The notes beneath the pieces are model-generated. The model saw only the letters and a program-made list of their open reading frames with translations, did no database searches and was not told the origin of the DNA. DNA of 64,000 bases from Lachnospiraceae bacterium (GTDB lineage: Bacteria; Bacillota; Clostridia; Lachnospirales; Lachnospiraceae), in contig JAFUPV010000012.1 of NCBI GenBank assembly GCA_017472605.1, forward strand, positions 470 to 64,469, written 5' to 3'. Positions 18,180 to 39,606 of the stretch are shown piece by piece (position 1 is the stretch's first letter; every line of letters begins with the position of its first letter). The position numbers and the translations under genes were made by a program.

Positions 18180-18208
18180 CTGAAAACCTCCATGATTTTT
18201 ATTTATTG

Positions 18209-19087: not shown

Positions 19088-19098
19088 AGCCACTCCTC

Positions 19099-20031: not shown

Positions 20032-20066
20032 GTCATTTGTTCCTCCTTGCCGCCTGTTGTGCTTTT

Positions 20067-20095
20067 ATTATGGCTTCCGTTTCCTCCTTTTTCAA
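20067..20095 (-). promoter_or_regulatory. Sigma-A promoter for the ABC operon
   Basis: TTGAAA-17bp-CATAAT on the minus strand. Confidence 0.5.
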
Positions 20096-20257
20096 TCCTC
20101 GTTTCATGCTTTTCTCCTCGTTTCGTACCAACCTCCGGAAATTGGTCTCCGGCGATTGAATTTTCGCTGATTTTCCGCTATGATTTACTTACCTTAACAG
20201 ACAAAGTGCGTTCCTCTTTGTCCTGTGCAAATATGTACTGTTTACCGGAGGTTTCTC

Positions 20258-21511: not shown

Positions 21512-21623
21512 AACGTTCTGCCCCTTTCCGGCCGGTCCCGCCTGAAGTCTGTACCGCCGAACGTCTTTCCCACCGGATTTTCTGCTTTCTCTCCCGTTCC
21601 GATTTCAATCAGGAGGTATCTGT

Positions 21624-24198: not shown

Positions 24199-25080
24199 TT
24201 ATTCCTTTTTCTCCTCCCGGTCATACAGATAAAGATATAAATCCTCCAATGTCGGCACGGCCTCTTTCCACTCCTCCCCGGGTTCCCGGTCACTCAGCAC
24301 CTTCAGGCGCACGCGGTCACCTTCCCGTGTCACCTGGCTGACCGGATACTTTTGGGAGATTTCCTCCCAGTTTTCATAGGGAACCCACACATAAAACATG
24401 TTTCCCTGCAGAGCGTCTGTGCAAAGCTTCTGCAGATTTCCGGACATGCAGATTTCCCCTTCCCGAAGGAATACCACCTCTTTTGCAATCATTTCTATGT
24501 CCGTCACAATGTGAGTTGCTATGATCACAATTTTGTTGAAAGCCACCTGAGAGATCAGATTGCGGATCCGCACCCGTTCTTTGGGATCCAGTCCCGCTGT
24601 CGGTTCGTCCAGAATCAGTACCGCCGGATCACCAAGCACTGCCTGTGCGATCAGCGCCCGCTGCCGCATTCCGCCGGAGAAACCGCCAAGGCGTTTCTGA
24701 CGGACATCCGCCAGATTTACCATCGGAAGGATCCGGTCAATCTGCCGCTTTGTCTCTGCTTTCGTCAGCCCCTTTAACGCTGCCATGTAATACAGAAACC
24801 GTTCCAGCGTCATGGCAGGGTAGAGCTGCTGCTGCTGCGGGACAAAGCCAATTTTTTCCCGGTAGCGCTCCGCAAGCGTGCGGATGTCTGTCCCGTTAAA
24901 GGAAACCGAGCCGCTGTCTGCGCTCAGATTGTCTGTCAGAATGTTCATCAGTGTCGATTTTCCGGCTCCGTTTGGGCCAAGAAGACCATAGACGCCGTCG
25001 GTAAATGTGTACTGAAACAATTTCAGTGCCTGCTTCTTTCCATAGGATTTTGATAATCCTTCGATACGCAACTCATTCAT
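24199..25080 (-). CDS. ABC transporter ATP-binding protein (export/multidrug type)
   Basis: GPNGAGKST, FSGGMRQR, LDEPTAGLD. Confidence 0.95.
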   Translation of the reverse strand: MNELRIEGLSKSYGKKQALKLFQYTFTDGVYGLLGPNGAGKSTLMNILTDNLSADSGSVSFNGTDIRTLAERYREKIGFVPQQQQLYPAMTLERFLYYMAALKGLTKAETKRQIDRILPMVNLADVRQKRLGGFSGGMRQRALIAQAVLGDPAVLILDEPTAGLDPKERVRIRNLISQVAFNKIVIIATHIVTDIEMIAKEVVFLREGEICMSGNLQKLCTDALQGNMFYVWVPYENWEEISQKYPVSQVTREGDRVRLKVLSDREPGEEWKEAVPTLEDLYLYLYDREEKKE

Positions 25081-25230
25081 ATACGTCCATCCCCTCTATT
25101 GATCGGTTGTCTCCGGTTTTAATCCTGACCGCAGCAACCCATTTTGATGTCTTTTCATTCCAATGCCTTCTCCTTTTGACGCCTTCGCATTCTGATATCT
25201 TCCCTTTATAATACTTCCGCAAATCTCACG

Positions 25231-25275
25231 CACCGATTCAGGCATTACCAACTCTGGCATTACCGATTCCGGCAT
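25231..25275. repeat. 3 x 15-bp tandem repeat at the permease stop codon
   Basis: caccgattcaggcat / taccaactctggcat / taccgattccggcat. Confidence 0.85.
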
Positions 25276-27086
25276 TACAGCAGCCATGTGAAACCTTTTG
25301 CCATCCCAAGCGCAGCCAGTTCGATCACAGCCAGCTGAATGATCTGCTGCCCAAGCAGATACATGCCAAGGCTGATCCAGCCGGGTACCCGGTCAAGAAT
25401 GGAAAGAGACGCCGCACTGGCTGACAGGCCGTTTAATCCGTATGTCTGAATCACCCGCATGTAAAACGGCACGAACAGGAACAGAAAAATCATCAGTCCG
25501 GCAGTCAGGATCCATACCCGTTTCTTTTTCCGAATCTGCCGCCAGCCTGCCTTTGTGGCACAGATCAGCCGCTTCTGTCCATATCGGTATTCCATGCCCC
25601 AGACTGTTCCCATGGATACCAGCAGAAACAGCACTGCGATACCCGCCATCAAACCATAGTATCCGGCATTTGTCTGCCAGATCAGTCGGCCATAGCCTTT
25701 TTCATAAAGAATCTGCCCATTGGGAAGTTCCTTCAGACGGTCCGCCCTGGACCGGATGATCTGGTACGCATTATAAATTTCAAAATTCTGGCTTCCCGCT
25801 GCCATCAAAAGCGCTTCTTCCTGCATCTTCGCCACAATCTGCTCCAGCCGCTCACCCTCCTCCTGCAGCCACACGTCCTTCTCCTCGTCCCATGTTCCCT
25901 GCAGGCGCTGGCAATACTGCCACTGATAGTATTCCTGCTCCGTCGAATAGAGAGGATACTTCTTCTCATAAATTTTCCCGGCAGCTGCCGCCAGCAGCAC
26001 CAGAAGAATCAGCCATCCTCCCATGACCAGCAGCTTATAACCTTCATGAAGCAGATGACTGGTATGCCGGATCCATCCAAACCTCAGAACACGTCCTGTC
26101 CTCTTTCCCGCTTCCATGACCATTCCATGCCCAAACAGATTCAGCGGAAGAAAAACTGCAAGAAGAATTCCGTGCCCGATGCCCATAACCCATATCATGT
26201 TTACCGGATGGCCGAAGCAGTTCAGATTGTGGAATTCCGTAAAAAAGTCCGCGCAGCCAAGGAAATACCAGAGATTTAAGTATTTCAGAGACACCAGCCA
26301 GGACTGCCGGTCAATCCCGTGATAACAGCAGAACCCGCTCAGAAGAACAATCAGCCAGATCCATGCCGCCCATCCCGTTTTCCTGCACCACAGGGTACAT
26401 CCGCAGCAGACAGCGGTTAACGTCACACATGCCGCGCTGCGAAACAGATACCAGACCAGCAGAAACGTCCCCATGCTCCATTTCTGTATGCTGGAAGGAA
26501 AGGCGCTCTGGAGCGTCCTTCCCATGCTCCCCAGGCCGACGGCGGCTTCCATGACAAGGACTCTCGCCGTGGTAAGAACGAGTATTCCGCCAACAGACAG
26601 AAGCAGCAGCGCAGCAAGCTTTGCCCGTCCAAGAAATCCGCGCCCTTTCTTCATCGTTCGGTTCAGCAGATACTGACCTTTTCTCCGCTCTTCCAGCATT
26701 CCCCAGTAACAGAGCATAACAATCCAGACAACAACCAGCACATCGGTTTCATCCGTATCCACGGCAAGCCGTATCCCATCCGCCGGTTCTTCTGAGATAA
26801 CCGTTCCTCTCATCCCATCATAGATTTCCCCGCTCTGTTTTGCATTCCTGTAAACAAAGCTGTTCCTGTCCGCAAAAATGGCAATGGACGTGGAATTCCT
26901 GCTGTGAGTCACCAGAGAATCAATATATTCTTCGTATTCCTGCTGCGTCAGAATTGTCGGTTCCTGAATCTCCCTCGCCTGCCCGAAAGAAATCCCGATT
27001 TCCAAAAGCAGCAGGCACAGAAACAACAGCACAAACCGCGTCTGACAGCAGATTCGTTCCATTTCATATCGTATCAGCCGAAGCAT
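25275..27086 (-). CDS. Multi-pass membrane protein, probable ABC exporter permease with internal duplication
   Basis: Two blocks of hydrophobic helices with EERRKG..LNRTMKKGR and EYRYG..LICATKAGW ABC-2-like motifs; upstream of the ATPase gene. Confidence 0.75.
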   Translation of the reverse strand: MLRLIRYEMERICCQTRFVLLFLCLLLLEIGISFGQAREIQEPTILTQQEYEEYIDSLVTHSRNSTSIAIFADRNSFVYRNAKQSGEIYDGMRGTVISEEPADGIRLAVDTDETDVLVVVWIVMLCYWGMLEERRKGQYLLNRTMKKGRGFLGRAKLAALLLLSVGGILVLTTARVLVMEAAVGLGSMGRTLQSAFPSSIQKWSMGTFLLVWYLFRSAACVTLTAVCCGCTLWCRKTGWAAWIWLIVLLSGFCCYHGIDRQSWLVSLKYLNLWYFLGCADFFTEFHNLNCFGHPVNMIWVMGIGHGILLAVFLPLNLFGHGMVMEAGKRTGRVLRFGWIRHTSHLLHEGYKLLVMGGWLILLVLLAAAAGKIYEKKYPLYSTEQEYYQWQYCQRLQGTWDEEKDVWLQEEGERLEQIVAKMQEEALLMAAGSQNFEIYNAYQIIRSRADRLKELPNGQILYEKGYGRLIWQTNAGYYGLMAGIAVLFLLVSMGTVWGMEYRYGQKRLICATKAGWRQIRKKKRVWILTAGLMIFLFLFVPFYMRVIQTYGLNGLSASAASLSILDRVPGWISLGMYLLGQQIIQLAVIELAALGMAKGFTWLL

Positions 27087-27146
27087 CGTCCCATCCTCCT
27101 GTTACTTATACAGTTCCATGTACCGCAGATCCATGGATCAGTCCAG

Positions 27147-28385
27147 TCACGGTTCCTCCTCTGCCCACACAGCATTGTGCCAGATCACTTTCTTATCAGC
27201 CAGTTCCTCTACTTCCAGATACATGGTATCTTTATATGGCTCCGGATCAATGGAAAAATAAATCTTTCCATCATAATATCCCTGATAGCTGTGCCTTTCT
27301 CCGGTTTTCTCATCCACGGGCAATTCCGCTTTCACCACAAGCGCTCCTGTATTCCGGTCAATCAGACGCAGCCAGTCTTCCTCATCCATCATCATCGCAT
27401 AATCATCAATCAGCTGAAACGCCCAGATGTCTTTGCAGTCGGAACTCTCCCATTCCCACAGAACCTTTTCTTCCCCATTTTTTGCCCAAATCAGCCGGTT
27501 TTCCCAATCCAGAAGGAGAACTCCAAGTTCCGGATCAAATCCGACCGCTCCACAGGTTTCATAGAATGACGTTTCCGTCTCATAAACAGGCTTTAAATCG
27601 TTTTCTTTCGGATCATAGCAGATATATTGACGTGAAACTGTCACACTCTGCTTCAATGCCTCTGTCTCTTCCGATGTCAGACCAGACCCGCTAAACAAGG
27701 ACGACAAATCCTGGCTGAACGCGTTTTTCTCGAAATAAACGCAGCCATCCAGAGCCGTCAAATAAGAATATCCTCCATGGAAGCTTCCTTTTGTTGTATC
27801 CAATATTTCTGTCTCCAGCGTATCCAGATTCAGAGCCGCCAAAATCCCATAGCTGTCCATTGTCATCACATATTCACCAGGTGTCGTTTCCTCATAATAA
27901 GTATCAACATAGTACAGCATGTTATCAATCAGGCACAGATCCGACATGTAATTTCCCGGTATGCAGTCTGTCAATTCTTTCTTTCCGCTTCCATCAACGG
28001 ATGCCTTCCAGACGGAATGAGCATTCATCCCTTCCCCCTGTCCGATCAGATACAGTGCCCCCTGATAAAAGAACGCTTTCTCGCCTCCAATCGGCAGCAG
28101 GGACGCGCTGCAGCTGCTGCCGGTATGGGCACAGCCTTCTGTCGCGCACAGAAAAACCTCCTGCCCCGTTGCGAAATCAATGTATTTCAGAAATGGGGAA
28201 CCATTTTGAATGTAATGCTTCAGAATTCCGTTATCGGTAATGCTTGCCCATCCGGTCGTCCCTGTTGTTCCAAAAAATGCTCTCGTTGTTTCCGCCACTT
28301 CCGTCTTTTTGGAACATGCGCTGATACTCAGCATTCCTGCCAGCAGGATTATCTGAAATAGAATTTTCTTTTTCTGTTTTCTCAT
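27147..28385 (-). CDS. Lipoprotein, probable beta-propeller, with a Cys/His cluster
   Basis: Start MRKQKKK; lipobox ISAC; LCATEGCAHTGSSCSA; repeated WKASVDG / LAALNLDT beta-blade-like segments. Confidence 0.7.
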   Translation of the reverse strand: MRKQKKKILFQIILLAGMLSISACSKKTEVAETTRAFFGTTGTTGWASITDNGILKHYIQNGSPFLKYIDFATGQEVFLCATEGCAHTGSSCSASLLPIGGEKAFFYQGALYLIGQGEGMNAHSVWKASVDGSGKKELTDCIPGNYMSDLCLIDNMLYYVDTYYEETTPGEYVMTMDSYGILAALNLDTLETEILDTTKGSFHGGYSYLTALDGCVYFEKNAFSQDLSSLFSGSGLTSEETEALKQSVTVSRQYICYDPKENDLKPVYETETSFYETCGAVGFDPELGVLLLDWENRLIWAKNGEEKVLWEWESSDCKDIWAFQLIDDYAMMMDEEDWLRLIDRNTGALVVKAELPVDEKTGERHSYQGYYDGKIYFSIDPEPYKDTMYLEVEELADKKVIWHNAVWAEEEP

Positions 28386-28430
28386 AGATATCACCCTCTT
28401 TTCCCTGATCTGTGAATCCCGGCAACAAAA

Positions 28431-28456
28431 CGGCTGCGGAATCATTTCCGCAGCCG
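28431..28456 (-). terminator. Hairpin terminator
   Basis: CGGCTGCGGAA/TTCCGCAGCCG stem flanked by AACAAAA and TTTTGTT. Confidence 0.7.
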
Positions 28457-28469
28457 CTCTTTTTGTTCA

Positions 28470-28512
28470 TACATCCGGGCGAACGTGCCTGTGACACGTC
28501 CGGTTGGATTTA
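28470..28512 (-). repeat. REP-like palindromic element, copy 2 (its TAA is the stop codon of the upstream gene)
   Basis: Minus strand TAAATCCAACCGGACGTGTCACAGGCACGTTCGCCCGGATGTA; 38/43 identical to 16500-16542. Confidence 0.8.
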
Positions 28513-30150
28513 TTCTGCCAGCTGACGGTTCATTTCCTCCAAAACAGCTTCCAGTCCTGCCTCCAGCAATTTCTCATGCAGCTCTTCCAGCAGCACTTCC
28601 GTTTCCGCGCCATACATCCCCCAGAATACAGGCGCATAGGAATCGTAAAGTTCCATGCAGGCATCATATTCCTTCTGTACCGCAGAAAGATCAATCGCGG
28701 ATTCGTCCACAAGCGGCATTGACACATATGCATTTGCCTGCAGCTGTGCCTCATAGCACGTTTCGTAAAACGGGATGGAAAGCTCCGCCAGCGCGCGGCA
28801 GGAGGTTCCTAAGCCAAGTCCCATGATGCCGCCTTTTCGGGTGTGATGCACAAGAAACGGTTCTTCTTTCGACGTATCATCGACGTAATAACTCCATCCC
28901 TCGATTCCGGAATATACCAGATTCCGAAATTCCATATCGGAATAAAGCAGATCCAGAAACTGCAGACATTCTTCCGGATACTGTGTTTCTGCGTCCACGC
29001 CAATTCCCATTTTTGCCAGGTTGATGCAGGTTTCGACGTTCAGGATGTTCGGCCATGCAAGGTATGCCGTGCCATATGGATCGGAATTCACGTATCCCCA
29101 TGTGAGACGGTATGCTTCATTGGGGACGAACACTGCCATACAATAAGCTGCCGTATCCGCGGTGGTCCGCAATTCCGGAGTTTTTATGATTCCTGTTTTT
29201 GACTGGCAGGAACTGATCAGAGTCTCCCCATAACCCAGCACGCCTGCTTCCCTGTATTGTCCCAGACACAGATACCAGTTTTTCAGCGTTTCATCTTCGA
29301 GAAAATCAACGACACGCAATGTCCCATCTTCCATTTGGCTGACAGCCCAATACGGTGCGAATTCCTGATAACCTGCAATCTCAAAAAATCCTTCATAAAA
29401 CGAATTTCCCACTTCCATACGCACCGGAATCACACCATTCTGTTTCAGCTGCTCATTTTCAGCCAGAATGGAAAGATCACTGACCGTATTTGTCCACGCA
29501 ATCGGGTAAACATCGCTCAGTTCTTTGTTGTAGTAGATTACATAGGGATTTGAAATCTCAAAACATGCAGGAATTGCATAAATCCCGCCGTCCGCACCTT
29601 TTAATGCTTCTATGCTGACTTCTGCCACCCAGTTATCTTCTGACCGCGTGTAATATGCGTTCAGGGCATCCAGCAGATGTCTTCCCGTTTCCGACTCCAG
29701 ATAGGGGGACAAATTCAGCAGATATCCATTTTCCAGACAATAGGCCTGCAGTTCGGAACTGGTTGTAAAAAAGATGTCCGCAGCCATTCCTTCTTCTTTT
29801 CTGGTTTTATATATCTCAACCGGTGTCAGGAAATCGCCGCTGAAGGATTCCTGATAACCCAGCTCAATTGCAAATTGATATCCGTTTTCTTTCAGATACT
29901 GATTGATCGCATTGATATGCTCCGGATAGCTCACAATGGTGTCATCGATTATTGTAAGAACAATGCCCTCCGGGGCTTTTTCTTCCGCATCGACCTCCGC
30001 CGTACATTCAAACTCCATGTACACAATGTTAGGACTTGCTTCGCCAAAGGTGATTTCTCCTTCTTCTGCGGTTTCGGCAACCGCATTTATACAATTCAAA
30101 AGCAATAGTGCAGACAGAAAAAAGCCAGTGTGTTCCCAGAATCCTTTCAT
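28510..30150 (-). CDS. Secreted solute-binding-protein-like protein
   Basis: Signal peptide; ADIFF, LLNLSPYLESE, DGGIYAIP, YPEECLQFLDLLY, LLEAGLEAVLEEMNRQL resemble family-1 SBPs. Confidence 0.65.
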   Translation of the reverse strand: MKGFWEHTGFFLSALLLLNCINAVAETAEEGEITFGEASPNIVYMEFECTAEVDAEEKAPEGIVLTIIDDTIVSYPEHINAINQYLKENGYQFAIELGYQESFSGDFLTPVEIYKTRKEEGMAADIFFTTSSELQAYCLENGYLLNLSPYLESETGRHLLDALNAYYTRSEDNWVAEVSIEALKGADGGIYAIPACFEISNPYVIYYNKELSDVYPIAWTNTVSDLSILAENEQLKQNGVIPVRMEVGNSFYEGFFEIAGYQEFAPYWAVSQMEDGTLRVVDFLEDETLKNWYLCLGQYREAGVLGYGETLISSCQSKTGIIKTPELRTTADTAAYCMAVFVPNEAYRLTWGYVNSDPYGTAYLAWPNILNVETCINLAKMGIGVDAETQYPEECLQFLDLLYSDMEFRNLVYSGIEGWSYYVDDTSKEEPFLVHHTRKGGIMGLGLGTSCRALAELSIPFYETCYEAQLQANAYVSMPLVDESAIDLSAVQKEYDACMELYDSYAPVFWGMYGAETEVLLEELHEKLLEAGLEAVLEEMNRQLAE

Positions 30151-30302
30151 TCGCTCGCCTCCTTTTTCTCAGCATATCATTTCCAACAGGTAAAAGCAAG
30201 AAACTTTTTATTTCTGCAAAAGTCCCCTGCTTACCCATTGTTTATATCGCTCATCCGACATATTTAATTATTCTGAGATTCCGTTTTCTGTTAGAACTGA
30301 TC

Positions 30303-30692
30303 TTAACGATAACGAATCAACGTAAATACCTTCTGATTTCCGCTTGTAGCATCTGTATGTGTATTTGCCACTGAGTATACAAATCCAGTAGCAGAATAAA
30401 CAACACTTGCACTATTACTTCCACCATTACTGCCTCCACCTGCGCCAGAACCATTCTCATCATATGAGTTTGAAATAGTGGAAACAACAGAACCACTTTT
30501 TGCTGTCACTGCTGTTACAACAGGATATACGCCAGCATTTGAATTAATTGAACATGTCGCAGTAATTCCATAACTTGTCGTTGTATATGACGATCCATAT
30601 ACTGTTCCACTGTCTACTACTGCCGCATTTGCAGAAACAGCTACTCCCAATAGTGTCGCCATGGCAACCATTGCAATTTTTATTCGTTTTAT
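30303..30692 (-). CDS. Small secreted Gly/Ser-rich protein ending RYR (paralog 1); probable ATA start at 30692, otherwise ATG at 30671
   Basis: RBS GAAGGGAG 7 nt before ATA AAA CGA ATA AAA; signal peptide ending ANA; homologous to 35075-35470. Confidence 0.7.
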   Translation of the reverse strand: MKRIKIAMVAMATLLGVAVSANAAVVDSGTVYGSSYTTTSYGITATCSINSNAGVYPVVTAVTAKSGSVVSTISNSYDENGSGAGGGSNGGSNSASVVYSATGFVYSVANTHTDATSGNQKVFTLIRYR

Positions 30693-30708
30693 AATATTTC
30701 TCCCTTCA

Positions 30709-31146
30709 TTACCATGAAAAATCTACTACTCCCGTTGACCAATTCGGTGTCCAGTATCCACTAACCACATAGTCTACTAAAGTACTTCCTGTATTTCCCC
30801 GTAAAGCAACATTTCCTTCATGCATCTCACTATAGTACACTAGCTGACACAGATATGGAACTTCTTCTCCTGGTACGATATAATTATATGTTATCTGAGT
30901 CCCATCGGAAGCTACAACCAGCATATTTGTCGGACGGTTTAAAACTGATTGATATGTAATCTTTGCCTGAGCGCAAGAGTACTCAGGATATTTATAAACA
31001 TAGGTACTCATTCCGGCCTGATCTACACTTTTCAACTGAAATCCATAGCCATTCTTTTCATAAATTACATCAGCTGCAAAAACTGTACATGTACCCACTA
31101 AGCATAATACAATCAGTATCATGGATATATACTTTTTCATTAGCAA
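30709..31146 (-). CDS. Small secreted hypothetical protein
   Basis: MKKYISMILIVLCL...VFA signal peptide; C-terminal LRGNTG...VSGYWTPN; RBS GGAGG. Confidence 0.7.
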   Translation of the reverse strand: MLMKKYISMILIVLCLVGTCTVFAADVIYEKNGYGFQLKSVDQAGMSTYVYKYPEYSCAQAKITYQSVLNRPTNMLVVASDGTQITYNYIVPGEEVPYLCQLVYYSEMHEGNVALRGNTGSTLVDYVVSGYWTPNWSTGVVDFSW

Positions 31147-31258
31147 TTACCTCCGTTCGTTTTTATTTATATACCTGCCCAACGATTTTTGACACGCTGT
31201 TATCCCCCCCTTTCTGTGTCAGGCCCGCTTCAACAGGAAACATTTCGAAACCAGTCTT

Positions 31259-31903
31259 TTATTCAAGCATCTCTACAATCTTTCCCTTATCCATTCTGTA
31301 CACAACATCACACAGCAAATCAATATCTTCTTTCGTATGACTGGCAATTATTATCAGTTTCCCTTCTTCTTTCAGACGCAGCAGCAACTGACGGATTTCT
31401 TCAACCCCTTCATTATCCAGTCCGTTCATCGGTTCATCCAGTAATAGAATCTGCGGGTCTTCCATGATCGCCTGTGCGATTCCAAGTCTCTGACGCATTC
31501 CAAGAGAATACGCGCCCACCCTCTTTTTACTGAATGGATCCAGTCCAACAAGCCGGATTGTTTCACGTATCTTCTGATCTGAAATCTTCCCATTAATCAT
31601 CCCAAGCATTTTCAGATTCCGGAATCCCGAATACTCCGGTAAAAAGCCAGGGTTCTCAATGATCAAGCCAACATTCTCCGGTACATCCTGCCCCTCTTTT
31701 AGCACTTTTCCATTGATTGCAATTTCACCTGATGTTGGACGGACAAATCCACAGATATGCTTCATTAATAACGATTTCCCACAACCGTTTCTTCCTACCA
31801 GACCATAAATTTTTCCAGCTTCCATCACTATGTTAATGTCCTTTAATACAATCGCTTCTCCAAACTGCTTATTCAGATTTCTGATTTCAATTTTTCCCGA
31901 CAT
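31259..31903 (-). CDS. ABC transporter ATP-binding protein
   Basis: GRNGCGKS, YSLGMRQR, LDEPMNGLD. Confidence 0.95.
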   Translation of the reverse strand: MSGKIEIRNLNKQFGEAIVLKDINIVMEAGKIYGLVGRNGCGKSLLMKHICGFVRPTSGEIAINGKVLKEGQDVPENVGLIIENPGFLPEYSGFRNLKMLGMINGKISDQKIRETIRLVGLDPFSKKRVGAYSLGMRQRLGIAQAIMEDPQILLLDEPMNGLDNEGVEEIRQLLLRLKEEGKLIIIASHTKEDIDLLCDVVYRMDKGKIVEMLE

Positions 31904-31915
31904 GGACCGTCCCCC

Positions 31916-32794
31916 CTACTGTTCAGAAAATAAATCCATACGCTTCACTTTTCGCCCAATAATTCCTCCCAGAATCAGCATCATGGCAGTACCAGTTATC
32001 ACTACATATGAGCCAGTTAATAAACCGCGTCCGGACAAATACTGCAGATTTTCCATACTGGTCCAGCTGACAGGTGAAAAAATCATATACCAGTTCGTCT
32101 TTTCTGATGTCAGATTATACAGAACCGGATCAATTAAAACCAGAAAAACTGCAGCTGCAATACCAATCCATCTTTTTTTTGAGTACAGATTAATCGCATA
32201 GATCAGAAATCCCAAGATAATCAATATCATCCATGCACTGCCATAGCTGTACAGCACAGCAATCCAATAATTGACCTGATTAACAACATGAACCGGACAC
32301 TGTATTCCGTTCAGGGCTTCAAAGCGATTAATACTGCCTCCTGCAATTGCCCCAATCAGACTTCCCCATCCATGGGTTAAAGAAATTGTTGGTGCAAGAT
32401 AAATACACGTAACAGTCGTAGTCCACAATAAATAAATCAAAGAAGCAAGAATAATGTAGAGACATTCCCCTTTATACCAGTTTTTTCTTCCTGACCGAAT
32501 TACCAGATATGGTTTTTGTTTATCAATAAACGGTGCATTGGAAAGCAGTGCGATTCCGCCAAAAAACAGGATTACTTTGGGCAGTCCATTGCTGTTCATG
32601 GCATCCCCCATCAGTAATGGAAAGATTGTAATTGGCGTAGTAAGTTCATTCTCCAAAGCAAATTTGGATACCGGTAATGTATATCTTCCAAGAACTACCG
32701 CAATCACTGTCAAAATTGTCCAGATTCGGTAATTTCTCTTCCACTCATTCAATCCTTCCGTTGCTACCATCCAGATTTTTTTACAGATTCCCAT
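31916..32794 (-). CDS. Probable ABC exporter permease
   Basis: About 6 transmembrane segments; YLVIRSGRKNW; adjacent to the ATPase gene. Confidence 0.7.
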   Translation of the reverse strand: MGICKKIWMVATEGLNEWKRNYRIWTILTVIAVVLGRYTLPVSKFALENELTTPITIFPLLMGDAMNSNGLPKVILFFGGIALLSNAPFIDKQKPYLVIRSGRKNWYKGECLYIILASLIYLLWTTTVTCIYLAPTISLTHGWGSLIGAIAGGSINRFEALNGIQCPVHVVNQVNYWIAVLYSYGSAWMILIILGFLIYAINLYSKKRWIGIAAAVFLVLIDPVLYNLTSEKTNWYMIFSPVSWTSMENLQYLSGRGLLTGSYVVITGTAMMLILGGIIGRKVKRMDLFSEQ

Positions 32795-33590
32795 TCTTCT
32801 TTCTCCTGTTCATCGCCCACAGACATCCGGCTGCAGTTACCATTTGCGCTGCAATCAATATTCCATTACTATATATGAAATTGGGCCAGAAATCATTTGT
32901 CCCCAATACAATCCAGCAGGAGCTGATCGACCAGAAATCCAGAGACATCGGTAAGATACCGGTAAATGCATATAGGATATAGAACAATATATATGGAATT
33001 GCAATTGCTACATAGCGGCTTGGTGCAAAAATTGAAACAAAGATACCAATATTACTGAGAAACACAATTGCCAAACCAAATTGAAATCCAGTCAGCACAC
33101 CATAGAGCCATGGAAACGGTCCCTTTTCAATGACAGAATAAAAACCAGTCCAGCTCCCATTCCACCCTGCTCCCCCTCTTAGCGGGAAATATGGTGAAAT
33201 AATTGCCAAAAACAGCAGAAATCCGCTAATCGTAACGAAAAGAATCGCGATTGCGTTTGCTATCAGTTTTGAAACTACATAGGATTCAACAGATACTCCA
33301 CGTCCAAGAATCTGCTTTTGAAACGAATACTGTAAATCATCGCTGATACCAAACGTATAGATACCAGACAACATAACTACCATAACTGCTTTAAACCGAT
33401 CAAAATACAGCACCTCCATCAATTTTGATGGTCCGCTTACATAGGGATCAAGATTATATTTCATGCATGCAAGAATACTATCATGAATGCATCCACACAT
33501 CAGAATGGGAACCAGCACCAGAATCAACCAAATCCTTTTTGCCGCGAAACAGCGGTAAAGATCCATCTTAATCATTCCCCAACATTTCAA
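32781..33590 (-). CDS. Probable ABC exporter permease
   Basis: About 6 transmembrane segments; ILGRGVSVESYVVSK; overlaps the next permease gene. Confidence 0.7.
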   Translation of the reverse strand: MKCWGMIKMDLYRCFAAKRIWLILVLVPILMCGCIHDSILACMKYNLDPYVSGPSKLMEVLYFDRFKAVMVVMLSGIYTFGISDDLQYSFQKQILGRGVSVESYVVSKLIANAIAILFVTISGFLLFLAIISPYFPLRGGAGWNGSWTGFYSVIEKGPFPWLYGVLTGFQFGLAIVFLSNIGIFVSIFAPSRYVAIAIPYILFYILYAFTGILPMSLDFWSISSCWIVLGTNDFWPNFIYSNGILIAAQMVTAAGCLWAMNRRKKNGNL

Positions 33591-33629
33591 CCGCGCTCTC
33601 CTCCCTATCTGTTCATTTCCCTTTATCGA

Positions 33630-34733
33630 TCAGTACATACGAAACGTATTGATATCTCCGCTTATCGCATCCAAAAGCATATATCCATCTGCTTCCGCCT
33701 CTCCCCGCAGCCGGTTCGGAAACTCACCGGCATACAGATCAATTGTCGACTCCTTATCTGTAAAACTGAGTTTCCAACAGGGAAGTAATTGTGATGTACC
33801 TTCGATCATATTCTGCTGCTTCGTATTTTCTGTATAAACAAGTTCTATCTCTGTGATTTTCATTTGATCCGGTACCAGCTGATAGATCTCAAATGCCAGT
33901 TCTTTCCACTTTTCTTCCGCTTCTTCACTGGATATCAAGTCCACCATTTCCTCTGAAATAACCTGATATCTCACTGGCGCTTCCAACGAAATCAGTCCTC
34001 TTGCTGGTGAATAAATTATCGAAAGAATTCCATCTTCGATCAAAGAACGATATGCCAGACCTTCAATTTCTTCATATTCATAGAGAAATAGAAATGCAAA
34101 ATCTTCCTGATCCCATTCTCCCGCCGCACTGTCCGTCATATCTTTTCCAGGAGCAGGTGTTCCAAAATACATCCAGGATGCAGATCCAAATTCATCATCA
34201 ATCAAATACGTTCTTACATTTCCGTACGGAAATTCCAATTCCTCCGCAATCTGATCACATACTTCTCTACATTCCTCATATGATTCATATTCTTTCGCAC
34301 TCTCCGGCATCGCCATTTCCAGGAAATCAGGCTGATATTTGCGATACACATTAAGAGGAGTCATTGCCATATGATATGGGTCTGCCAATTCTGTGTTAAT
34401 AACAGAAAACGAACTGCAATCACCATATACCGACAATTTTAAATCTCCGCTGCTATACCAGGCAGACATTTCGTCCATGTCTTCTGCATATTCTTCACCA
34501 AGGAACAGTTGAACAATCTGTTCCAGATCATAACAGGAAAACGACACGTTTAGTAAACGATACTCCGTCAATTGTGTCGTATCAATCTCTTCTTCTGTTT
34601 CATCCACTTCCGATTCTTTTTCGTAGTCGATCACATCCCCGGTCTCTTCAGACACATTTATTTCGTTTGAATATGTATTTTTTGCGTTAACTGCTGCAAC
34701 AATCATCATAAGAAAATATACGATCTTCCTCAT
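33630..34733 (-). CDS. Acidic secreted hypothetical protein
   Basis: Start MRKIVYF with RBS GGAGG; N-terminal hydrophobic segment; C-terminal IELVY...LLPCWKL...LDAISG. Confidence 0.65.
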   Translation of the reverse strand: MRKIVYFLMMIVAAVNAKNTYSNEINVSEETGDVIDYEKESEVDETEEEIDTTQLTEYRLLNVSFSCYDLEQIVQLFLGEEYAEDMDEMSAWYSSGDLKLSVYGDCSSFSVINTELADPYHMAMTPLNVYRKYQPDFLEMAMPESAKEYESYEECREVCDQIAEELEFPYGNVRTYLIDDEFGSASWMYFGTPAPGKDMTDSAAGEWDQEDFAFLFLYEYEEIEGLAYRSLIEDGILSIIYSPARGLISLEAPVRYQVISEEMVDLISSEEAEEKWKELAFEIYQLVPDQMKITEIELVYTENTKQQNMIEGTSQLLPCWKLSFTDKESTIDLYAGEFPNRLRGEAEADGYMLLDAISGDINTFRMY

Positions 34734-34749
34734 TCTGTTCCTCCGATTC

Positions 34750-35023
34750 TTATTCATTATCAAGTTGCCTGTTCATCTCTTCCAATACACGGTTCAGTCC
34801 TGCTCCCAGCAGCTTTTCATGCAATTCATTCAATTTACTTTCCGTCTCTTCGGCATAAATTCCCCAAAACACCGGTGAATATTCCTCATACTATATATGG
34901 GGATGCGTTTTGCTCCCTTGGATCATTCGTTTCTTCCATAAACTCTCCTGCATCTGCAGTACTCCCACTAATACTCCATACACATCCGCCCAGTAATCCC
35001 AACAATAAAAGTCGCTTTCCCAT
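34750..35023 (-). pseudogene. Internally deleted paralog of the 28510-30150 SBP-like gene
   Basis: RBS plus MGKRLLL...NASPYIV* (compare EASPNIV) joined out of frame to YEEYSPVFWGIYAEETESKLNELHEKLLGAGLNRVLEEMNRQLDNE* (compare YDSYAPVFWGMYGAETEVLLEELHEKLLEAGLEAVLEEMNRQLAE). Confidence 0.85.
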
Positions 35024-35074
35024 AGTTTCTATCCTTTTCCTTCCCTATCGTCAAGAATATTTCTCTTCTTTCAC

Positions 35075-35470
35075 CTAACGATACCTGGCTAATGTATAGG
35101 ATTTCTGCAAATTATTTGTTGCATTGCTGTGTACATTTTTCACCATATATGCACTAGTGCTGGGAACGTAAGATATATTGATACTATTATTTCCTCCACC
35201 ACTGTTTCCACCAATTCCTGATCCAGCTTCATTATAGGCTGTTGATACAGCATATACCACGCAACCACTCTTACTGGTAGTTACTGTTATCGGTGCATTT
35301 AATGGATATGTCAATCCATCACCAAACGCACAATATGCGGTAATACCATATCCGGTCGTTGTATATTGCAATCCATAAAATGTTCCACTATCAACGGTTT
35401 CTGCACTTACCGAACACAGATTTCCAAGTAAAAGTATTATTGCCAGTAATAATGTCATTTTCTTCTTCAT
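35075..35470 (-). CDS. Small secreted Gly/Ser-rich protein ending RYR (paralog 2)
   Basis: MKKKMTLLL...VSA signal peptide; about 45% identical by eye to 30303-30692. Confidence 0.8.
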   Translation of the reverse strand: MKKKMTLLLAIILLLGNLCSVSAETVDSGTFYGLQYTTTGYGITAYCAFGDGLTYPLNAPITVTTSKSGCVVYAVSTAYNEAGSGIGGNSGGGNNSINISYVPSTSAYMVKNVHSNATNNLQKSYTLARYR

Positions 35471-35587
35471 AAAACCTTCTTTCTATCTCAGCAAGTATCC
35501 AGTTAGTCTCACCTTTTCCTATTTCTCCCGCCTAACAATCACATCACTTTCCTAAAATAGTATCCGTACTTAAATCACTCTATCGTT

Positions 35588-35655
35588 ATTATATTGCAAA
35601 TATTCTTTTTTTGTCAATAATTCTTTTTGACTTTTTCACAATCTTCTGATATAGT
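35588..35655. promoter_or_regulatory. Back-to-back sigma-A promoters
   Basis: Minus strand TTGACA(35617-35612)-18bp-TATAAT(35593-35588); plus strand TTGACT(35627-35632)-17bp-TATAGT(35650-35655). Confidence 0.7.
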
Positions 35656-35711
35656 AATATCGTATTACATGTATAATTTTTTTACAAAATCAATGAAAGG
35701 ACTGTTATTCC

Positions 35712-36107
35712 ATGGCAATCCACCTACAACAAAAAGAACTGGACATTCTATCCCTTCTGGTTCATGCATCAAAACCAATGGCAATTTCTGAAATTGTTGC
35801 CACCGATCCTTCTTACACAACGAACATCGTTCAGCCAATCATCCGAAAGTTCTGTGAGATGAATCTGGTCGAGGTTGCAGATATCGTCTACAACAAAAAG
35901 GCGCTTACGCGAACCTTCCGTCCAACTGCCTCAGCAAATGCGATTCTTGAAGAACTCTTTCTGAAAGAATATCGTTCCTTCCGTCAGCTCTTTTCTGACA
36001 ATACACTGCTGGCTTCCATGGTTCAATCTGAACTGGACTCCACACAGGATGCAGCAGAAATTCAAAGATTAGAACAGATTTTGGAAACGTTCAAGAAAAA
36101 TCTATAA
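35712..36107 (+). CDS. BlaI/MecI/CopY family repressor
   Basis: KELDILSLLV...PMAISEI...TTNIVQPIIRK winged helix; 131 aa; directly upstream of an M56 peptidase gene. Confidence 0.8.
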   Translation: MAIHLQQKELDILSLLVHASKPMAISEIVATDPSYTTNIVQPIIRKFCEMNLVEVADIVYNKKALTRTFRPTASANAILEELFLKEYRSFRQLFSDNTLLASMVQSELDSTQDAAEIQRLEQILETFKKNL

Positions 36108-36128
36108 GTAAGAACGGAGGAATGTTCA

Positions 36129-37289
36129 TTGAGTTACTCGTTTGAAACAGTCGTAATGGCTGTTTTGTTTTCCAATGTTCTGTTTTTCATTACATATTTA
36201 TTATTTCGGAGTAAAAAGATGCTGCTTCTTGTCGGCTACCGCACCCTGGCAGTTACAACAATTCTTTCCCTGATTCGTTTGCTGTTCCCGATAGAGCTTC
36301 CTTTTACCACAACCATTCTGTATTCCTGCCCGCCTTCAAAAGCGGTTGTTTTTCTTCAGCACAGATGGAACCTGTTTTCCTTCCTTCACGTTTCCATCTT
36401 CGATTTACTCCTCATTGTCTGGGTGATTGGAATCATTCGCGGTTCTTCTGTTTATTTCATGCAATACAGAAAAATCAGCGCATTCATTTTATTACATGGT
36501 AAAGAAGGAGCAAATCAGGAACGATATTCGGCAATCCTGAATTCTGTATGTACTTCTCTGGCTGCGAAAAACAGATTCCAGGTAATGGAAATTGCCGGAC
36601 TTTCAACCCCGATGATTTTTTCCGTTTTCAAACCAACCATTTTGCTGCCTGCGAATCATACCTACACGGATCAGGAACTTTTTTTCATTTTTCAACATGA
36701 AATTTCCCATTCCGTTCACGGTGACCTGCTCGTCAAATTCTTTTTACAGATATTAACCATTGTTTACTGGTGGAATCCACTGTCTGCTTCCATAAAAGCA
36801 CATATGAACCGGATTCTTGAATTGAATATTGACGCAGTTGTTACACACAACGACCGGCAGGCAATTGCAGACTACCTTTCCTGCTTATTGGCGATCAAAA
36901 AGCAGGCTGTCAATTCCAAACCTACTCCATTTCTTTCTTCAATTGGACTCTCCATCGCAGAAATAGAAGGAAGTGAGCTGGAGACCCGGTTTCAGGTACT
37001 GGCGAATCAAACTCCACAGCGGAAATCCGTTTCCTCTGGTATTATCGGTGTCAGCATCCTGTTTTTTCTTATCTCCTATCTGTTCATATGGGAACCCTCT
37101 CAGCCGCCCTCATTGTTTGAGCCGGAATCTTCCTATTTCCAAATGACAGAAGAAAATTCCTATGTAATTCAAAATCCCAACGGAACCTATGACTTTTACT
37201 GGAATGGGCAACTGATTGAAACCGTCGATTCCTTACAGTATTATGATGAATCCATACCAATTTATCAAAGCAAGGAGGATGTCCCATGA
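36129..37289 (+). CDS. M56 family (BlaR1-like) membrane metallopeptidase without a penicillin-binding domain
   Basis: TTG start with RBS GGAGG; RLLFPIELP, KPTILLP, HEISH (HExxH) then HGDLLVK, VYWWNPL; short C-terminal extracellular tail. Confidence 0.88.
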   Translation: MSYSFETVVMAVLFSNVLFFITYLLFRSKKMLLLVGYRTLAVTTILSLIRLLFPIELPFTTTILYSCPPSKAVVFLQHRWNLFSFLHVSIFDLLLIVWVIGIIRGSSVYFMQYRKISAFILLHGKEGANQERYSAILNSVCTSLAAKNRFQVMEIAGLSTPMIFSVFKPTILLPANHTYTDQELFFIFQHEISHSVHGDLLVKFFLQILTIVYWWNPLSASIKAHMNRILELNIDAVVTHNDRQAIADYLSCLLAIKKQAVNSKPTPFLSSIGLSIAEIEGSELETRFQVLANQTPQRKSVSSGIIGVSILFFLISYLFIWEPSQPPSLFEPESSYFQMTEENSYVIQNPNGTYDFYWNGQLIETVDSLQYYDESIPIYQSKEDVP

Positions 37290-37555
37290 CACGCAAACAA
37301 CTTTTTCGCCTCACACTCTCTGCACTCTGCTGCAGCATGTTTCTTTCCCTTCCGGCAACTGCCTCACCCATTTCCGACTATCAGGAAAGCGCTTATGCTA
37401 CTGCATGCACTGCCGTTGATACCTCCGCAGTTCCATATGCCGATGGACTCCAATGGTATTACAAAATTGAAAATGGAAAAATGTATAAGCGATTATATAA
37501 CACGTCCACTGGAAATTGGGTTGGGGACTGGATTTATGTAACGGATGTCGAGTAG
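37286..37555 (+). CDS. Small secreted protein (89 aa) coupled to the M56 gene
   Basis: ATGA overlap with the M56 stop; RBS AAGGAGG; signal peptide ending ATA; C-terminal WYYKIENGKMYKRLYNTSTGNWVGDW. Confidence 0.8.
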   Translation: MTRKQLFRLTLSALCCSMFLSLPATASPISDYQESAYATACTAVDTSAVPYADGLQWYYKIENGKMYKRLYNTSTGNWVGDWIYVTDVE

Positions 37556-37657
37556 CAGACTGCATGGAACAGAAACACAAGAACAGATCCTTTATCATAT
37601 CAGCAGAGCGAAACAATATGTGAAAATGGACACGAATCAAACGGAAATGACCACAAT

Positions 37658-37704
37658 AAAAGAGAGACTTGTATCCGTGTGAACGGAATTGCAAGTCTCT
37701 CTTT
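37658..37704. terminator. Probable bidirectional terminator between convergent genes
   Basis: AAAGAGAGACTTG ... CAAGTCTCTCTTT inverted repeat. Confidence 0.65.
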
Positions 37705-37822
37705 CCTATCCTTCTGATGTATTCTTTCTATTTTACAGCAGTCCATGCTGCAGGCAGTCAAACGGACGATTCGCCCATCTGACTGCTGTGCAGACTCCAA
37801 GAAAACAAATAACTTTACACGG

Positions 37823-38362
37823 CTACCTGGATTCCCTGTTTACCTCAATCTTTATGTTCTCTGCAAGGAATTCGATTTGTGATTGGGCAGTTTGCTCGAC
37901 TTCAATCTGAAATACAACGAAAATCGGCTTTTCATAGTCATTCATACCTACCCACAAACAAGAATCCGATGTTACCTGTGCCGGATATATATAATCCTTT
38001 CCATATTGGTATGTTCCATCCGACTGCTGGATATAAGTCTGAACATTGAAAGCTGTCAGAAGATAGTCTGTTGGATACTTTGCCGTAATCCTACAGGTTT
38101 CATCCGGCATTACAATCATTGATGCCGTAACACACAACATACTCTTCGATTGAAACTGATAGCAAATAATCGGATTCTCATTCATTTCTTTAATTCCGTT
38201 CTTATATGAATTGCTAACTTCTTCACTCAATTGTACGGTACACCCTGACAGAAATACAAATAGCACAAATAGCCATCGTTTCACAGACTTCAATTCAATA
38301 AATACCACCCTTTCATGCCTTCGAAATATATCTACAAAATTATATTTTCCGGAATTCCACAA
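37823..38362 (-). CDS. Hypothetical lipoprotein (true start possibly GTG at 38284)
   Basis: VKRWLFVLFVFLSGC lipobox. Confidence 0.6.
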   Translation of the reverse strand: MWNSGKYNFVDIFRRHERVVFIELKSVKRWLFVLFVFLSGCTVQLSEEVSNSYKNGIKEMNENPIICYQFQSKSMLCVTASMIVMPDETCRITAKYPTDYLLTAFNVQTYIQQSDGTYQYGKDYIYPAQVTSDSCLWVGMNDYEKPIFVVFQIEVEQTAQSQIEFLAENIKIEVNRESR

Positions 38363-38421
38363 AGATTCATGGCCTTACTCTAAATAAATAGCAAATATCA
38401 TTCCGAATCACCCATATTACA

Positions 38422-39258
38422 TTATGAAAATCCAGGAGCTTGCAATTTTAAACCAATAAATGTACCATTTGCCCAAGTGCCAGCCGAATCATATTCACCA
38501 TCCACAATTGTAACCTGTCCCGCTCCTCCTAATGTGCCGTCTCCTAATTCAACTCCAAACGATACTTCTAGTTCTATTAGTTGATGATAATATGTGGCTA
38601 TTATTGGTACACTTATCTCGACACCTTCTGTGAATGCACCTGCTTTCGGAATTAACTGTATCATCGAGGAAACGGAGATATTTTTGTACAAATTTTTAGA
38701 GATTGGTGCTGTATAACCAACTCCTCCCTCGGTTACATACGCTGGATATTCATTATTGTAATATTCTATATACTCCGTTGTTCCATCATATAATTGCGCA
38801 AGCCCTGTAGCACTTACATAAAAATAATTAAGCGAAAACAAATCACTATCCCAATTAACTGTTACAGCATCAGTCAATCTATTAATTGGCATTTCTATCC
38901 AACGTCCATATGGTTCTACATCCAGTGCAGTCATATTACCATCTGCGTCTTCCTCGCAGAAAACTCCTATCTCCCAAAAAAACATACTATCATCAATCGT
39001 TCCTGTCGGTATTGATCTCTGATTTGCATTCTGTTTCACACGAACATTGTCAACAAACTTTACATTTTTCCCAACTAACTGTTCATACACTTGCTCGATT
39101 GTCTTCGTATCGCGAATCTCTAAATATTCATCTGTACATCCAATTGATTTTAAATATTGCACCTTTTCCTCATAAGAAACCGACTCTTCGGCAAAACAGT
39201 TATTTGCACATCCAATGAGCAGACATAACATCAAAATTCTCAAAATACATTTTTTCAT
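38422..39258 (-). CDS. Secreted hypothetical protein
   Basis: MKKCILRIL...CFA signal peptide; RBS and consensus promoter upstream. Confidence 0.7.
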   Translation of the reverse strand: MKKCILRILMLCLLIGCANNCFAEESVSYEEKVQYLKSIGCTDEYLEIRDTKTIEQVYEQLVGKNVKFVDNVRVKQNANQRSIPTGTIDDSMFFWEIGVFCEEDADGNMTALDVEPYGRWIEMPINRLTDAVTVNWDSDLFSLNYFYVSATGLAQLYDGTTEYIEYYNNEYPAYVTEGGVGYTAPISKNLYKNISVSSMIQLIPKAGAFTEGVEISVPIIATYYHQLIELEVSFGVELGDGTLGGAGQVTIVDGEYDSAGTWANGTFIGLKLQAPGFS

Positions 39259-39368
39259 ATAACACTCATTCCTTTCTTTATTCTATTGCTTATCCTGTAT
39301 TCAATCCCTATAATTCTATCTCACCATATCATTACACTTCCTTTCTTACGAATTCATCGCTCAACGAT

Positions 39369-39397
39369 ATTATAATCATAATGTCTTATCTTGTCAA
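39369..39397 (-). promoter_or_regulatory. Consensus sigma-A promoter
   Basis: TTGACA-17bp-TATAAT on the minus strand upstream of 39258. Confidence 0.8.
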
Positions 39398-39606
39398 TAA
39401 TATATTGTATCAGAGGGAAATATGAAGTAAAACATTTACTCAGAGAGATCCTGAAAATTGGTTAGCTAAATATAGTCAAGCTTTTCTATCCATGCAACAG
39501 AAAAAAGGATTAAAATATCATTGATTATTGATACTTTAATCCTCTTTCTTCTTATACTTTACTTAATACCATTGACTCAACCGGAATGTTCATTCTTTCA
39601 ATGCTT

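Follow-up and report, generated by a model that had tools for sequence, protein, structure and literature searches.

Small secreted proteins of a rare family encoded ahead of genes for a binding-protein-like protein and an exporter-class ABC system in a Lachnospiraceae genome

In this work we have analysed two small genes, here called A and B, in a stretch of 64,000 nucleotides from a Lachnospiraceae bacterium (assembly GCA_017472605.1, contig JAFUPV010000012.1), which we refer to as the window. Both appear to be functional genes for Sec-exported proteins of about 106-108 residues that are predicted to be all-beta, and sequence comparison places them in a very rare, undescribed family. Members of this family head a conserved operon, in which they are followed by a protein resembling solute-binding proteins (SBPs), by lipoproteins, by a large membrane protein and by the ATPase of an exporter-class ATP-binding cassette (ABC) system. 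In the window, A and B sit in an island of foreign base composition. What could such proteins do? The answer which we put first, tentatively and at rather less than an even chance, is that they are secreted antagonistic effectors, Sec-dependent, unmodified and bacteriocin-like, with a cognate SBP-like binder and ABC-based self-protection. We place this answer ahead of the others because the structural gene comes first in the operon, the transporter is of exporter class, the variation between strains is cassette-like, the operon survives without its small gene, the small gene has been duplicated and has diverged, its composition is foreign and its occurrence is extremely patchy.

Two paralogous secreted proteins of a rare family

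The first-pass annotation of this DNA had described A and B as a paralog pair of small, secreted, Gly-rich proteins, about 45% identical by eye, that belong to no recognised family. Both open reading frames (ORFs) are intact, lie on the minus strand where it had placed them and begin with signal peptides (Table 1). The two proteins are 48% identical over 117 residues (BLASTP with compositional adjustment, E 2e-21), and a stretch of 78 nt is 74% identical in DNA. Their mature parts align with a score of 258, compared with 44 +/- 8 for 2000 composition-preserving shuffles (z 26.6), so their richness in Gly, Ser and Thr does not account for the similarity. All four motif strings which had been quoted are present in both proteins when these are aligned. 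The family is still unrecognised: no family in Pfam, NCBIfam, PHROG or the PDB matches it, and a profile search of the PDB gave only chance-level hits. B alone touched YjbE (PF11106) through residues 3-45, that is, its signal peptide and first strands, at 17.6 bits compared with a cutoff of 27.9, and we rejected this candidate. The C-terminal RYR, which had been noted as a mark of the pair, is indeed common to A and B, but it is not family-wide, as the other members end in FYRVL, DYTV or RHV.

In B, a cleavage site of the A-x-A type lies between VSA and ETV, at the end of the signal peptide MKKKMTLLLAIILLLGNLCSVSA; in A, the end of the signal peptide is KRIKIAMVAMATLLGVAVSANA and the site, of the same type, lies between ANA and AVV. 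Ser, Thr, Gly, Asn and Tyr make up 56-59% of mature A and B, which contain 8-11 Tyr and 1-2 Cys and are roughly balanced in charge. Mature B, rich in these same five residues, is predicted to be all-beta. Two AlphaFold models, one full-length and one mature, are also all-beta, with low confidence (predicted local distance difference test, pLDDT, 39.8 and 38.5). B was found in four metagenome assemblies with one change, N116D (window position 35125; D116 in all four runs), and in one public gut-metagenome run A carries the polymorphism M11V in its signal peptide (window position 30662). We found no RNA run that holds the window sequence.

Could proteins of this kind be subunits of a surface fibre, an amyloid or an adhesin that assembles outside the cell? 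The low charge, the abundance of Ser, Thr, Gly, Asn and Tyr and the predicted beta strands would suit such a role, as would the consensus promoter which precedes B. We regard it as quite improbable, since the sequences show neither internal repeats nor a sortase or cell-wall anchoring motif, genes for a nucleator or for assembly are missing, Pfam revealed no similarity to TasA, curli or chaplins, and what accompanies the small protein in a conserved manner is a binding protein with an ABC exporter instead of an assembly system.

In A the open frame extends from 30722, and neither ATG nor GTG occurs where a normal signal peptide would start. A strong Shine-Dalgarno sequence, GAAGGGAG (30700-30707), is followed after 4 nt by the ATT at 30695 and after 7 nt by the ATA at 30692. 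The first ATG, at 30671, would leave a signal peptide of 16 residues with no charged n-region, and the TTG start chosen by the gene caller (P0002, 115 aa) shortens the protein further. As four independent metagenome assemblies have no indel in this region, the odd start is real and not an assembly error; either a rare start codon is in use or A is poorly translated. B has the Shine-Dalgarno sequence AGAAGG 5 nt ahead of its ATG.

The family is extremely small. A word-indexed search of 5.8 billion clusters with B as the query returned B itself only, and a word-indexed protein search with a three-sequence profile returned only the family itself. An exhaustive HMMER scan of 1.84 billion representative proteins gave A, B and one true relative, P0005, which has 130 aa and aligns with B from end to end at 33% identity; two further hits, P0003 and P0004, were spurious repeat-protein matches and were discarded on inspection. 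In about 15 billion proteins the family forms three clusters. The small protein was not found by pattern scans of the JGI metagenomes or of 185,579 GTDB species genomes, tblastn against plasmids and phages gave no match for it, and no further copy is present in the window or in any locus that we fetched. More members were reached through the neighbouring SBP-like gene, at the loci L007, L008 and L009, and in total four intact members and two fragments were recovered. L007 encodes a protein of 150 aa. The fragment in L009 consists of the C-terminal 67 codons of a close relative, at a cut contig end; positions 1-25 of this Logan contig are Illumina adapter sequence (GTTCAGACGTGTGCTCTTCCGATCT), so the truncation is an assembly end and not biology. 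The fragment in L008 is a C-terminal stub of 42 codons, the start of which coincides exactly with the Gly-rich loop.

The four full-length mature regions align in all pairs with scores above all 2000 shuffles (z 7.4-14.3), and all four precursors have Sec signal peptides with A-x-A sites. The features common to the family are an N-terminal hairpin region, T-x-Y-x-x-x-Y-x-x-T-x-x-G-(I/M)-T, a segment of the form (V/I)-T...S-x-x-(V/L)-S...S-Y, a Gly/Ser/Asn-rich loop with one invariant Gly, a V-x-N-x-H motif with an invariant His, and an aromatic residue close to the variable C-terminus. The Cys residues are not conserved.

The operon behind the small gene

Wherever the contig reaches far enough, the genes downstream of the small gene have the same order: an SBP-like protein of about 550 aa, one to three lipoproteins or secreted proteins (264-432 aa), a membrane protein of 603-614 aa and an ABC ATPase of 286-293 aa. 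The region 24199-30692 of the window, headed by A, is one instance. Members of the family stand directly 5' of the same SBP subfamily in the window (A), in L001/L010, in L007 and in L009, and the stub in L008 is placed likewise; the operon is known from only four or five independent loci. The gap between the small gene and the SBP gene is 2 nt for P0005 in L001, 23 nt in L007 and 152 nt behind A. In L008 the small gene is absent from the called genes, and in L009 it is cut off. The lipoprotein, the membrane protein of about 605 aa and the ATPase are homologous across the window, L007 and L008, and L009 has the same gene set, nearly identical to that of L007. It had been proposed that each paralog lies directly upstream of the SBP-like slot of its own module. 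This is true of A; the protein encoded next to B, of 377 aa, is not SBP-like (hhalign probability 0.3%), though an SBP remnant lies between them.

The SBP-like protein of the window shares 30-39% identity with its counterparts in L001, L007 and L008. That in L001 is a lipoprotein of 530 aa with a DUF3502 segment and 30% full-length identity to it, and a profile built from the pair added no more than three relatives from the protein collection, P0007-P0009, at 35-39% identity. The window also encodes a canonical LplA-type SBP of 538 aa (16596-18212), which hhalign aligns with the 546-aa protein at 96% over 380 columns, with 24% identity. The lipobox at the N-terminus of the 546-aa protein, LLNC, is atypical, that of its relatives being LAGC, IAGC or TVGC, and there is a possible signal-peptidase-I site between AVA and E; it may be secreted rather than lipid-anchored. 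The 432-aa lipoprotein which follows gave only weak hints of DUF5050 or a propeller.

The remote kinship of the SBP to the carbohydrate-type LplA/DUF3502 binding proteins raises the question of whether the small protein captures glycans, as a stand-alone beta-sandwich similar to a carbohydrate-binding module (CBM) which would pass a poly- or oligosaccharide to the LplA-type partner. The mature proteins, with 8-13 Tyr and much Ser, Thr and Asn, resemble many sugar-binding sandwiches in this respect, and glycoside hydrolase genes flank both the window island and L001. We nevertheless consider a glycan-capture accessory unlikely. The transporter is of exporter class and the operon has no importer permeases, the operons of L007 and L008 have no carbohydrate-active enzymes as neighbours, no CBM in Pfam matches, and the window is so crowded with glycan-utilisation genes that adjacency there says little. 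One such group of genes, adjacent to the atypical operon, is a canonical carbohydrate uptake set at 16596-23357, which comprises the LplA-type SBP with DUF3502, two BPD_transp_1 permeases, a YesN-like AraC response regulator and a YesM-like histidine kinase, with GH88, GH78 and GH42 genes nearby.

The 603-aa membrane protein has about ten transmembrane (TM) helices in two halves, with a loop of about 75-105 residues after the first TM helix of each half, as judged from hydropathy, and is presumed to be the permease of an ABC exporter; no Pfam or NCBIfam model matches it. The best NCBIfam matches of the ATPase are GldA, DrrA and PQQ-ABC, and it is 59-68% identical to the ATPases of L007 and L008. 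An exporter role is suggested by the ATPases of the region, which are closest to the DrrA/GldA and lantibiotic-protection classes, and by the fact that no gene for a BPD_transp_1 importer permease is present in any of the four operons. The PDB, when searched with profiles of the lipoprotein, of the membrane protein and of the SBP, yielded only matches at chance level. No relative of the membrane protein was found in the 185,579 GTDB species genomes, and the JGI metagenomes yielded only a second sampling of the L001 locus, so the whole operon is as rare as the small protein. The scan of the GTDB genomes with the SBP reached only ordinary, distant loci of the LplABC type, such as L002, in an unrelated context, and these were set aside.

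The close strains L007 and L009 allowed us to compare synonymous (dS) and nonsynonymous (dN) divergence gene by gene. Moving from the flank into the operon, dS and dN were 0.031 and 0 for an S11 peptidase, 0.027 and 0.0015 for the ATPase, 0.016 and 0.005 for the 607-aa membrane protein, 0.062 and 0.011 for the 398-aa lipoprotein, 0.085 and 0.011 for the 413-aa lipoprotein, 0.135 and 0.025 for the SBP, and 0.136 and 0.034 for the small gene, of which 67 codons were available. The 5' end of the operon is thus 4-8x more diverged than its 3' end and the flank. This peak points to a co-varying cassette of small gene and SBP gene that is subject to allelic exchange or recombination. In the window, the GC content at third codon positions (GC3) jumps sharply from 0.18 in A to 0.43 in the first part of the SBP gene, which we also read as a sign of cassette exchange. 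The dN/dS ratios of the small gene and the SBP, 0.19-0.25, indicate purifying selection on both and hence that they are real genes.

Either partner can be lost alone. In L008 the genes for the SBP, the lipoprotein and the membrane protein are intact and that of the ATPase is open to the contig end, and the small gene survives only as its 42 final codons, without a signal peptide and preceded by a poor ribosome-binding site. In some pneumococcal loci of the lactococcin-972-like type the downstream genes are kept without a functional bacteriocin gene (PMC11796350), and L008 shows the same "immunity without toxin" pattern. Beside B it is the SBP which has gone. The remnant that separates B from the gene after it shares 72% identity with the C-terminal end of the 546-aa SBP (blastx, E 1e-8) and 51-60% with the SBP C-termini of the other loci (60% for L001, E 2e-13). 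B thus once had its own SBP gene, from which about 450 codons have been deleted internally; the mini-ORF which lies nearer to B (Table 1) is possibly the N-terminal remnant of that gene.

How might these observations fit together? We suggest that the small protein could be secreted as a free protein and act as an antagonistic effector, that the SBP-like lipoprotein would be its cognate extracytoplasmic binder, and that the lipoproteins together with the ABC-2 type exporter would keep the producer's own envelope free of the effector. An exchangeable specificity cassette would then be formed by the small gene and its SBP neighbour. The low-GC island would have delivered two divergent effector genes, one of which, A, now heads a resident operon of SBP, lipoprotein and ABC genes; the other, B, would be expressed from the consensus promoter ahead of it, with its own SBP gene deleted and a second ABC-2 exporter after it. 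Of the functions that had been listed for the pair before, namely a bacteriocin, a signal and a fibre or amyloid-like subunit, the bacteriocin-like one fits this context best, and the other two found no positive support. In a more specific form of this idea, an SBP fold would have been recruited to recognise a secreted protein, as antidote or as receptor, and would hand it to the ABC-2 exporter with the help of the accessory lipoproteins. Strains would exchange this polymorphic pair of effector and binder through recombination in the 5' part of the operon. We consider this elaborated version doubtful.

Several points weigh against an antagonistic role. The family has no sequence relationship to any known bacteriocin in Pfam, NCBIfam or the PDB (hhalign against lactococcin 972 gave 0.1%), and the mature proteins are near neutral and not cationic. 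To our knowledge, no immunity protein with an SBP fold has been described. If the SBP is the essential antidote, it is awkward that B has lost the one next to it, unless there is cross-protection by the 546-aa SBP or by the second exporter. For the small gene, dN/dS does not reach 1 and, calculated from 11 substitutions only, is not clearly above the value for the SBP. The case of the operon that has outlived its small gene comes from one locus, L008. The non-canonical start could make A poorly translated, the AlphaFold models are unusable at the pLDDT values given above, and no RNA run contains the sequence.

Perhaps, then, the small protein is not toxic at all. It might be a partner which assists the SBP-like lipoprotein, structurally or as a regulator, in an envelope machine driven by the ABC-2 system, and could for instance serve as a cap, as a ligand-presenting subunit or as a tethered cargo, with the ATPase powering an extracytoplasmic process as in mechanotransducing ABC systems. 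The strict adjacency of the two genes speaks for this, with gaps of 2 nt in L001 and 23 nt in L007 that suggest translational coupling; so do the purifying selection on both genes and the fact that the entire operon, not the small gene alone, is rare and uncharacterised. The co-variation of the two genes between close strains is explained as well by a partner as by an effector. Yet L008 has an apparently intact operon and no more than a stub of the small gene, an intact B has been kept downstream of a consensus promoter with no SBP of its own, and the duplication, divergence and foreign composition of the small gene would be unexpected for a housekeeping subunit. We therefore judge this explanation to be somewhat unlikely, though nearly as probable as a secreted effector with self-protection, which we continue to favour. 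If the latter is correct, these genes represent a family of Sec-dependent protein bacteriocins of uncultured gut Clostridia with no sequence link to known ones, and self-protection through the solute-binding-protein fold, a role for which we know of no example in this fold. Even if the protein is non-toxic, the conserved operon is an undescribed envelope system and would be another case of binding proteins which work with exporters and not importers. The family is known from no more than a handful of loci in about 15 billion proteins, so that it probably carries little weight ecologically and is valuable mainly for its mechanism.

The island and the surroundings of B

A and B lie in a 9.4-kb island (~30200-39600) with a GC content of 0.40 compared with 0.50-0.56 (locally 0.32-0.45 inside and 0.50-0.60 outside). 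GC3 is 0.185 in A and 0.265 in B, similarly low (0.27-0.30) in the island genes for the 145-aa and 278-aa proteins, and 0.38-0.44 in the other island genes that have matches. It rises to 0.49-0.51 in the SBP and lipoprotein genes and to 0.56-0.68 in the membrane-protein, ATPase and host genes. A 19-nt inverted repeat with a T-run at 39502-39547, just past the stop codon of a rhamnosidase gene, looks like the intrinsic terminator of that gene and marks the high-GC edge of the island. We found no integrase, tRNA gene or flanking repeats at the island and no tRNA gene in the whole window. We found the island sequence in four samples from a single gut-metagenome study and, in part, in one further run. 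For the GH42 gene of the window, the best identity among species-representative genomes is 73%.

Between B and A lies a second exporter block, unrelated to the conserved operon (Table 1); apart from generic ATPase similarity, its genes have no homologs in the other loci. No minus-strand terminator was found between B and the ATPase gene at 24199. The promoter ahead of B and the hairpin behind A, which lacks a U-tract, form an arrangement typical of abundantly made first-gene products, and the hairpin may act as an attenuator or stabilise the mRNA. No significant RNA structure is present in the leader of B (z 0.36), and Rfam has no match in the window. A second promoter with a 12/12 consensus match of the sigma-70 type lies on the minus strand upstream of the gene for the 278-aa secreted protein (39369-39401). 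It has in common with the promoter of B (35588-35621) an extended ATTATTGACAA..A.AAG and TATAATA.CG.T context, and the two may be co-regulated or of common origin. The 278-aa protein (38422-39258) and another of 179 aa (37823-38362), both with signal peptides and without a family match, belong to the same island.

Divergent from B are a gene for a putative repressor, called BlaI-like from its position and size only, and a gene for a BlaR1-type peptidase. The end of the latter is overlapped by a gene for a secreted protein of 89 aa (37286-37555). We looked for a BlaI-type operator palindrome in the intergenic region between B and these regulators and found no inverted repeat, and it is adjacency alone that suggests a regulatory tie. 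SBP-like lipoproteins can serve as pheromone receptors, as PrgZ/TraC do in enterococci. Might A and B be precursors of a signal, of which a fragment, for instance the roughly 38 residues C-terminal to the Gly-rich loop, is sensed by the SBP-like or the BlaR1-like protein? The BlaR1-like sensor and repressor-like gene beside B, and the L008 stub which starts exactly at that loop, agree with such a scheme. It is nonetheless the least probable of the explanations, and we give it very little weight, as conservation spans the whole mature protein, the conserved operon encodes no processing protease or double-glycine transporter, and there is no sensor or regulator within the L007 and L008 operons, the nearest in L007 being of the AsnC type and two genes beyond the operon.

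Table 1. Coordinates of the two small genes and of the features around them in the window
Feature	Position	Strand	Remarks
Paralog B	35075..35470	-	131-aa precursor: 23-aa Sec signal peptide and 108-aa mature protein; ORF and translation
Paralog A	30303..30695	-	~129-130-aa precursor, 106-aa mature protein; start codon uncertain (ATT 30695, ATA 30692 or ATG 30671)
Divergent LplA/DUF3502-type SBP-like gene, 546 aa	28510..30150	-	DUF3502 4.5e-9, weak SBP_bac matches
Lipoprotein, 432 aa	27147..28445	-	conserved C..EGC.H...SC motif; homologs in L007 (26%, E 1e-26) and L008 (34%, E 9e-71)
Polytopic membrane protein, 603 aa	25275..27086	-	36-37% identical to the 607-aa (L007) and 614-aa (L008) proteins; 35-37% between loci
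ABC ATPase, 293 aa, DrrA/GldA (ABC-2 exporter) class	24199..25080	-	Pfam ABC_tran; last gene of the operon
RNA stem-loop, long, without U-tract	30184..30240	-	between A and the SBP-like gene; -42.8 kcal/mol, z -4.1 compared with shuffles
Sigma-70 type promoter, TTGACA-18-TATAAT	35588..35617	-	12/12 consensus match alone; ~115 nt upstream of B
SBP-like pseudogene, 43-codon C-terminal remnant	34762..34890	-	same subfamily as 28510-30150; out of frame with the upstream mini-ORF
Mini-ORF, 45 codons, with lipoprotein signal (LLGGC)	34886..35023	-	lipobox aligned with the family lipobox; hhalign probability 1.9%, not significant
Second exporter block, unrelated	30709..34763	-	between B and A
Acidic secreted protein, 377 aa	33630-34763	-	not SBP-like
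ABC-2 permease, 269 aa	32781-33590	-	ABC2_membrane_2, 27.7 bits, just above the Pfam gathering threshold of 27.2
Membrane protein, 292 aa	31916-32794	-	part of the second exporter block
ABC ATPase, 214 aa	31259-31903	-	ABC_tran; best NCBIfam match is the lantibiotic-protection subfamily, 188 bits, below the 310-bit cutoff
Secreted protein, 145 aa	30709-31146	-	no family match; ends in DFSW; A starts 15 nt later
Putative winged-helix repressor, 131 aa	35712-36107	+	divergent from B; no hidden Markov model match
BlaR1-type M56 membrane peptidase, 386 aa	36129-37289	+	Peptidase_M56 1.9e-23, blaR1_generic 3.8e-18; without penicillin-binding sensor domain

Comparison with known systems

The closest parallel in arrangement is offered by the lactococcin-972-type loci, in which the gene of a Sec-secreted beta-sandwich bacteriocin is followed by genes for a large membrane protein and an ABC ATPase, which are thought to give immunity (PMC4055356, PMC11796350). 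As in lactococcin 972 of Lactococcus lactis pBL1 and the streptococcins of S. pneumoniae, a small Sec-secreted protein is encoded first, with a membrane protein and an ABC ATPase downstream, A and B are predicted to be rich in beta structure, and the operon can be kept without a functional small gene. The differences are considerable. The family profile and the lactococcin 972 sequence (= PDB 2LGN) gave 0.1% in hhalign, and none of the six members matches the Lactococcin_972 models (PF09683 / TIGR01653). The mature proteins are about 60% longer (106-125 aa vs 66). An SBP-like protein and one to three lipoproteins are inserted between the small gene and the transporter, which makes five to six genes instead of three. 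The 603-aa membrane protein matches no NCBIfam model, whereas that of the lactococcin type belongs to TIGR01654, and the operon ATPase reaches 111 bits on TIGR03608 (cutoff 255), less than on GldA and DrrA. Judged by these comparisons, the A/B family is not a member of the lactococcin 972 family.

Lantibiotic producers protect themselves by a LanI lipoprotein and a LanFEG exporter of the ABC-2 type. The likeness to our loci lies in an extracytoplasmic lipoprotein that could bind the product and an ABC-2 exporter, both encoded downstream of the structural gene. However, on TIGR03740 the island ATPase reaches 188 bits and the operon ATPase 142 bits, compared with a cutoff of 310, the small proteins have neither a leader peptide nor a pattern of Cys and Ser/Thr for rings, and the ORFs of the 24-40 kb region include no lanthipeptide precursor or modification enzymes (LanB/C/M). 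The lipoproteins are of SBP fold or propeller-like, without similarity to LanI. The double-glycine class II bacteriocins differ as well, since the N-termini here are Sec signal peptides, the Gly-rich stretch is internal and the loci encode no C39 ABC transporter.

Bacillus has small secreted beta-rich proteins of the YxeA/DUF1093 type, which are co-transcribed with peptide-sensing ABC transporters (BceAB/FtsX type), the small gene being the last. Here too a small secreted protein belongs to the same operon as an ABC transporter of an envelope-defence type, but there is no sequence match, the small gene is first and the transporter class differs. Curli CsgA, TasA and chaplins differ from A and B in that Pfam gives no match to them and the conserved operon has no assembly genes.

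Lastly, the LplABC importers with YesMN-type regulation, of which the window has a copy at 16596-20031, are related through the binding protein: the SBP-like partner is a remote homolog that has kept the C-terminal DUF3502 segment. The canonical copy in the window has BPD_transp_1 permeases and the four operons do not. The SBP subfamily described here barely scores on SBP_bac_1/8 and is never found beside permeases of the MalF/G type; it always stands beside an exporter-class ABC system and a small secreted protein.

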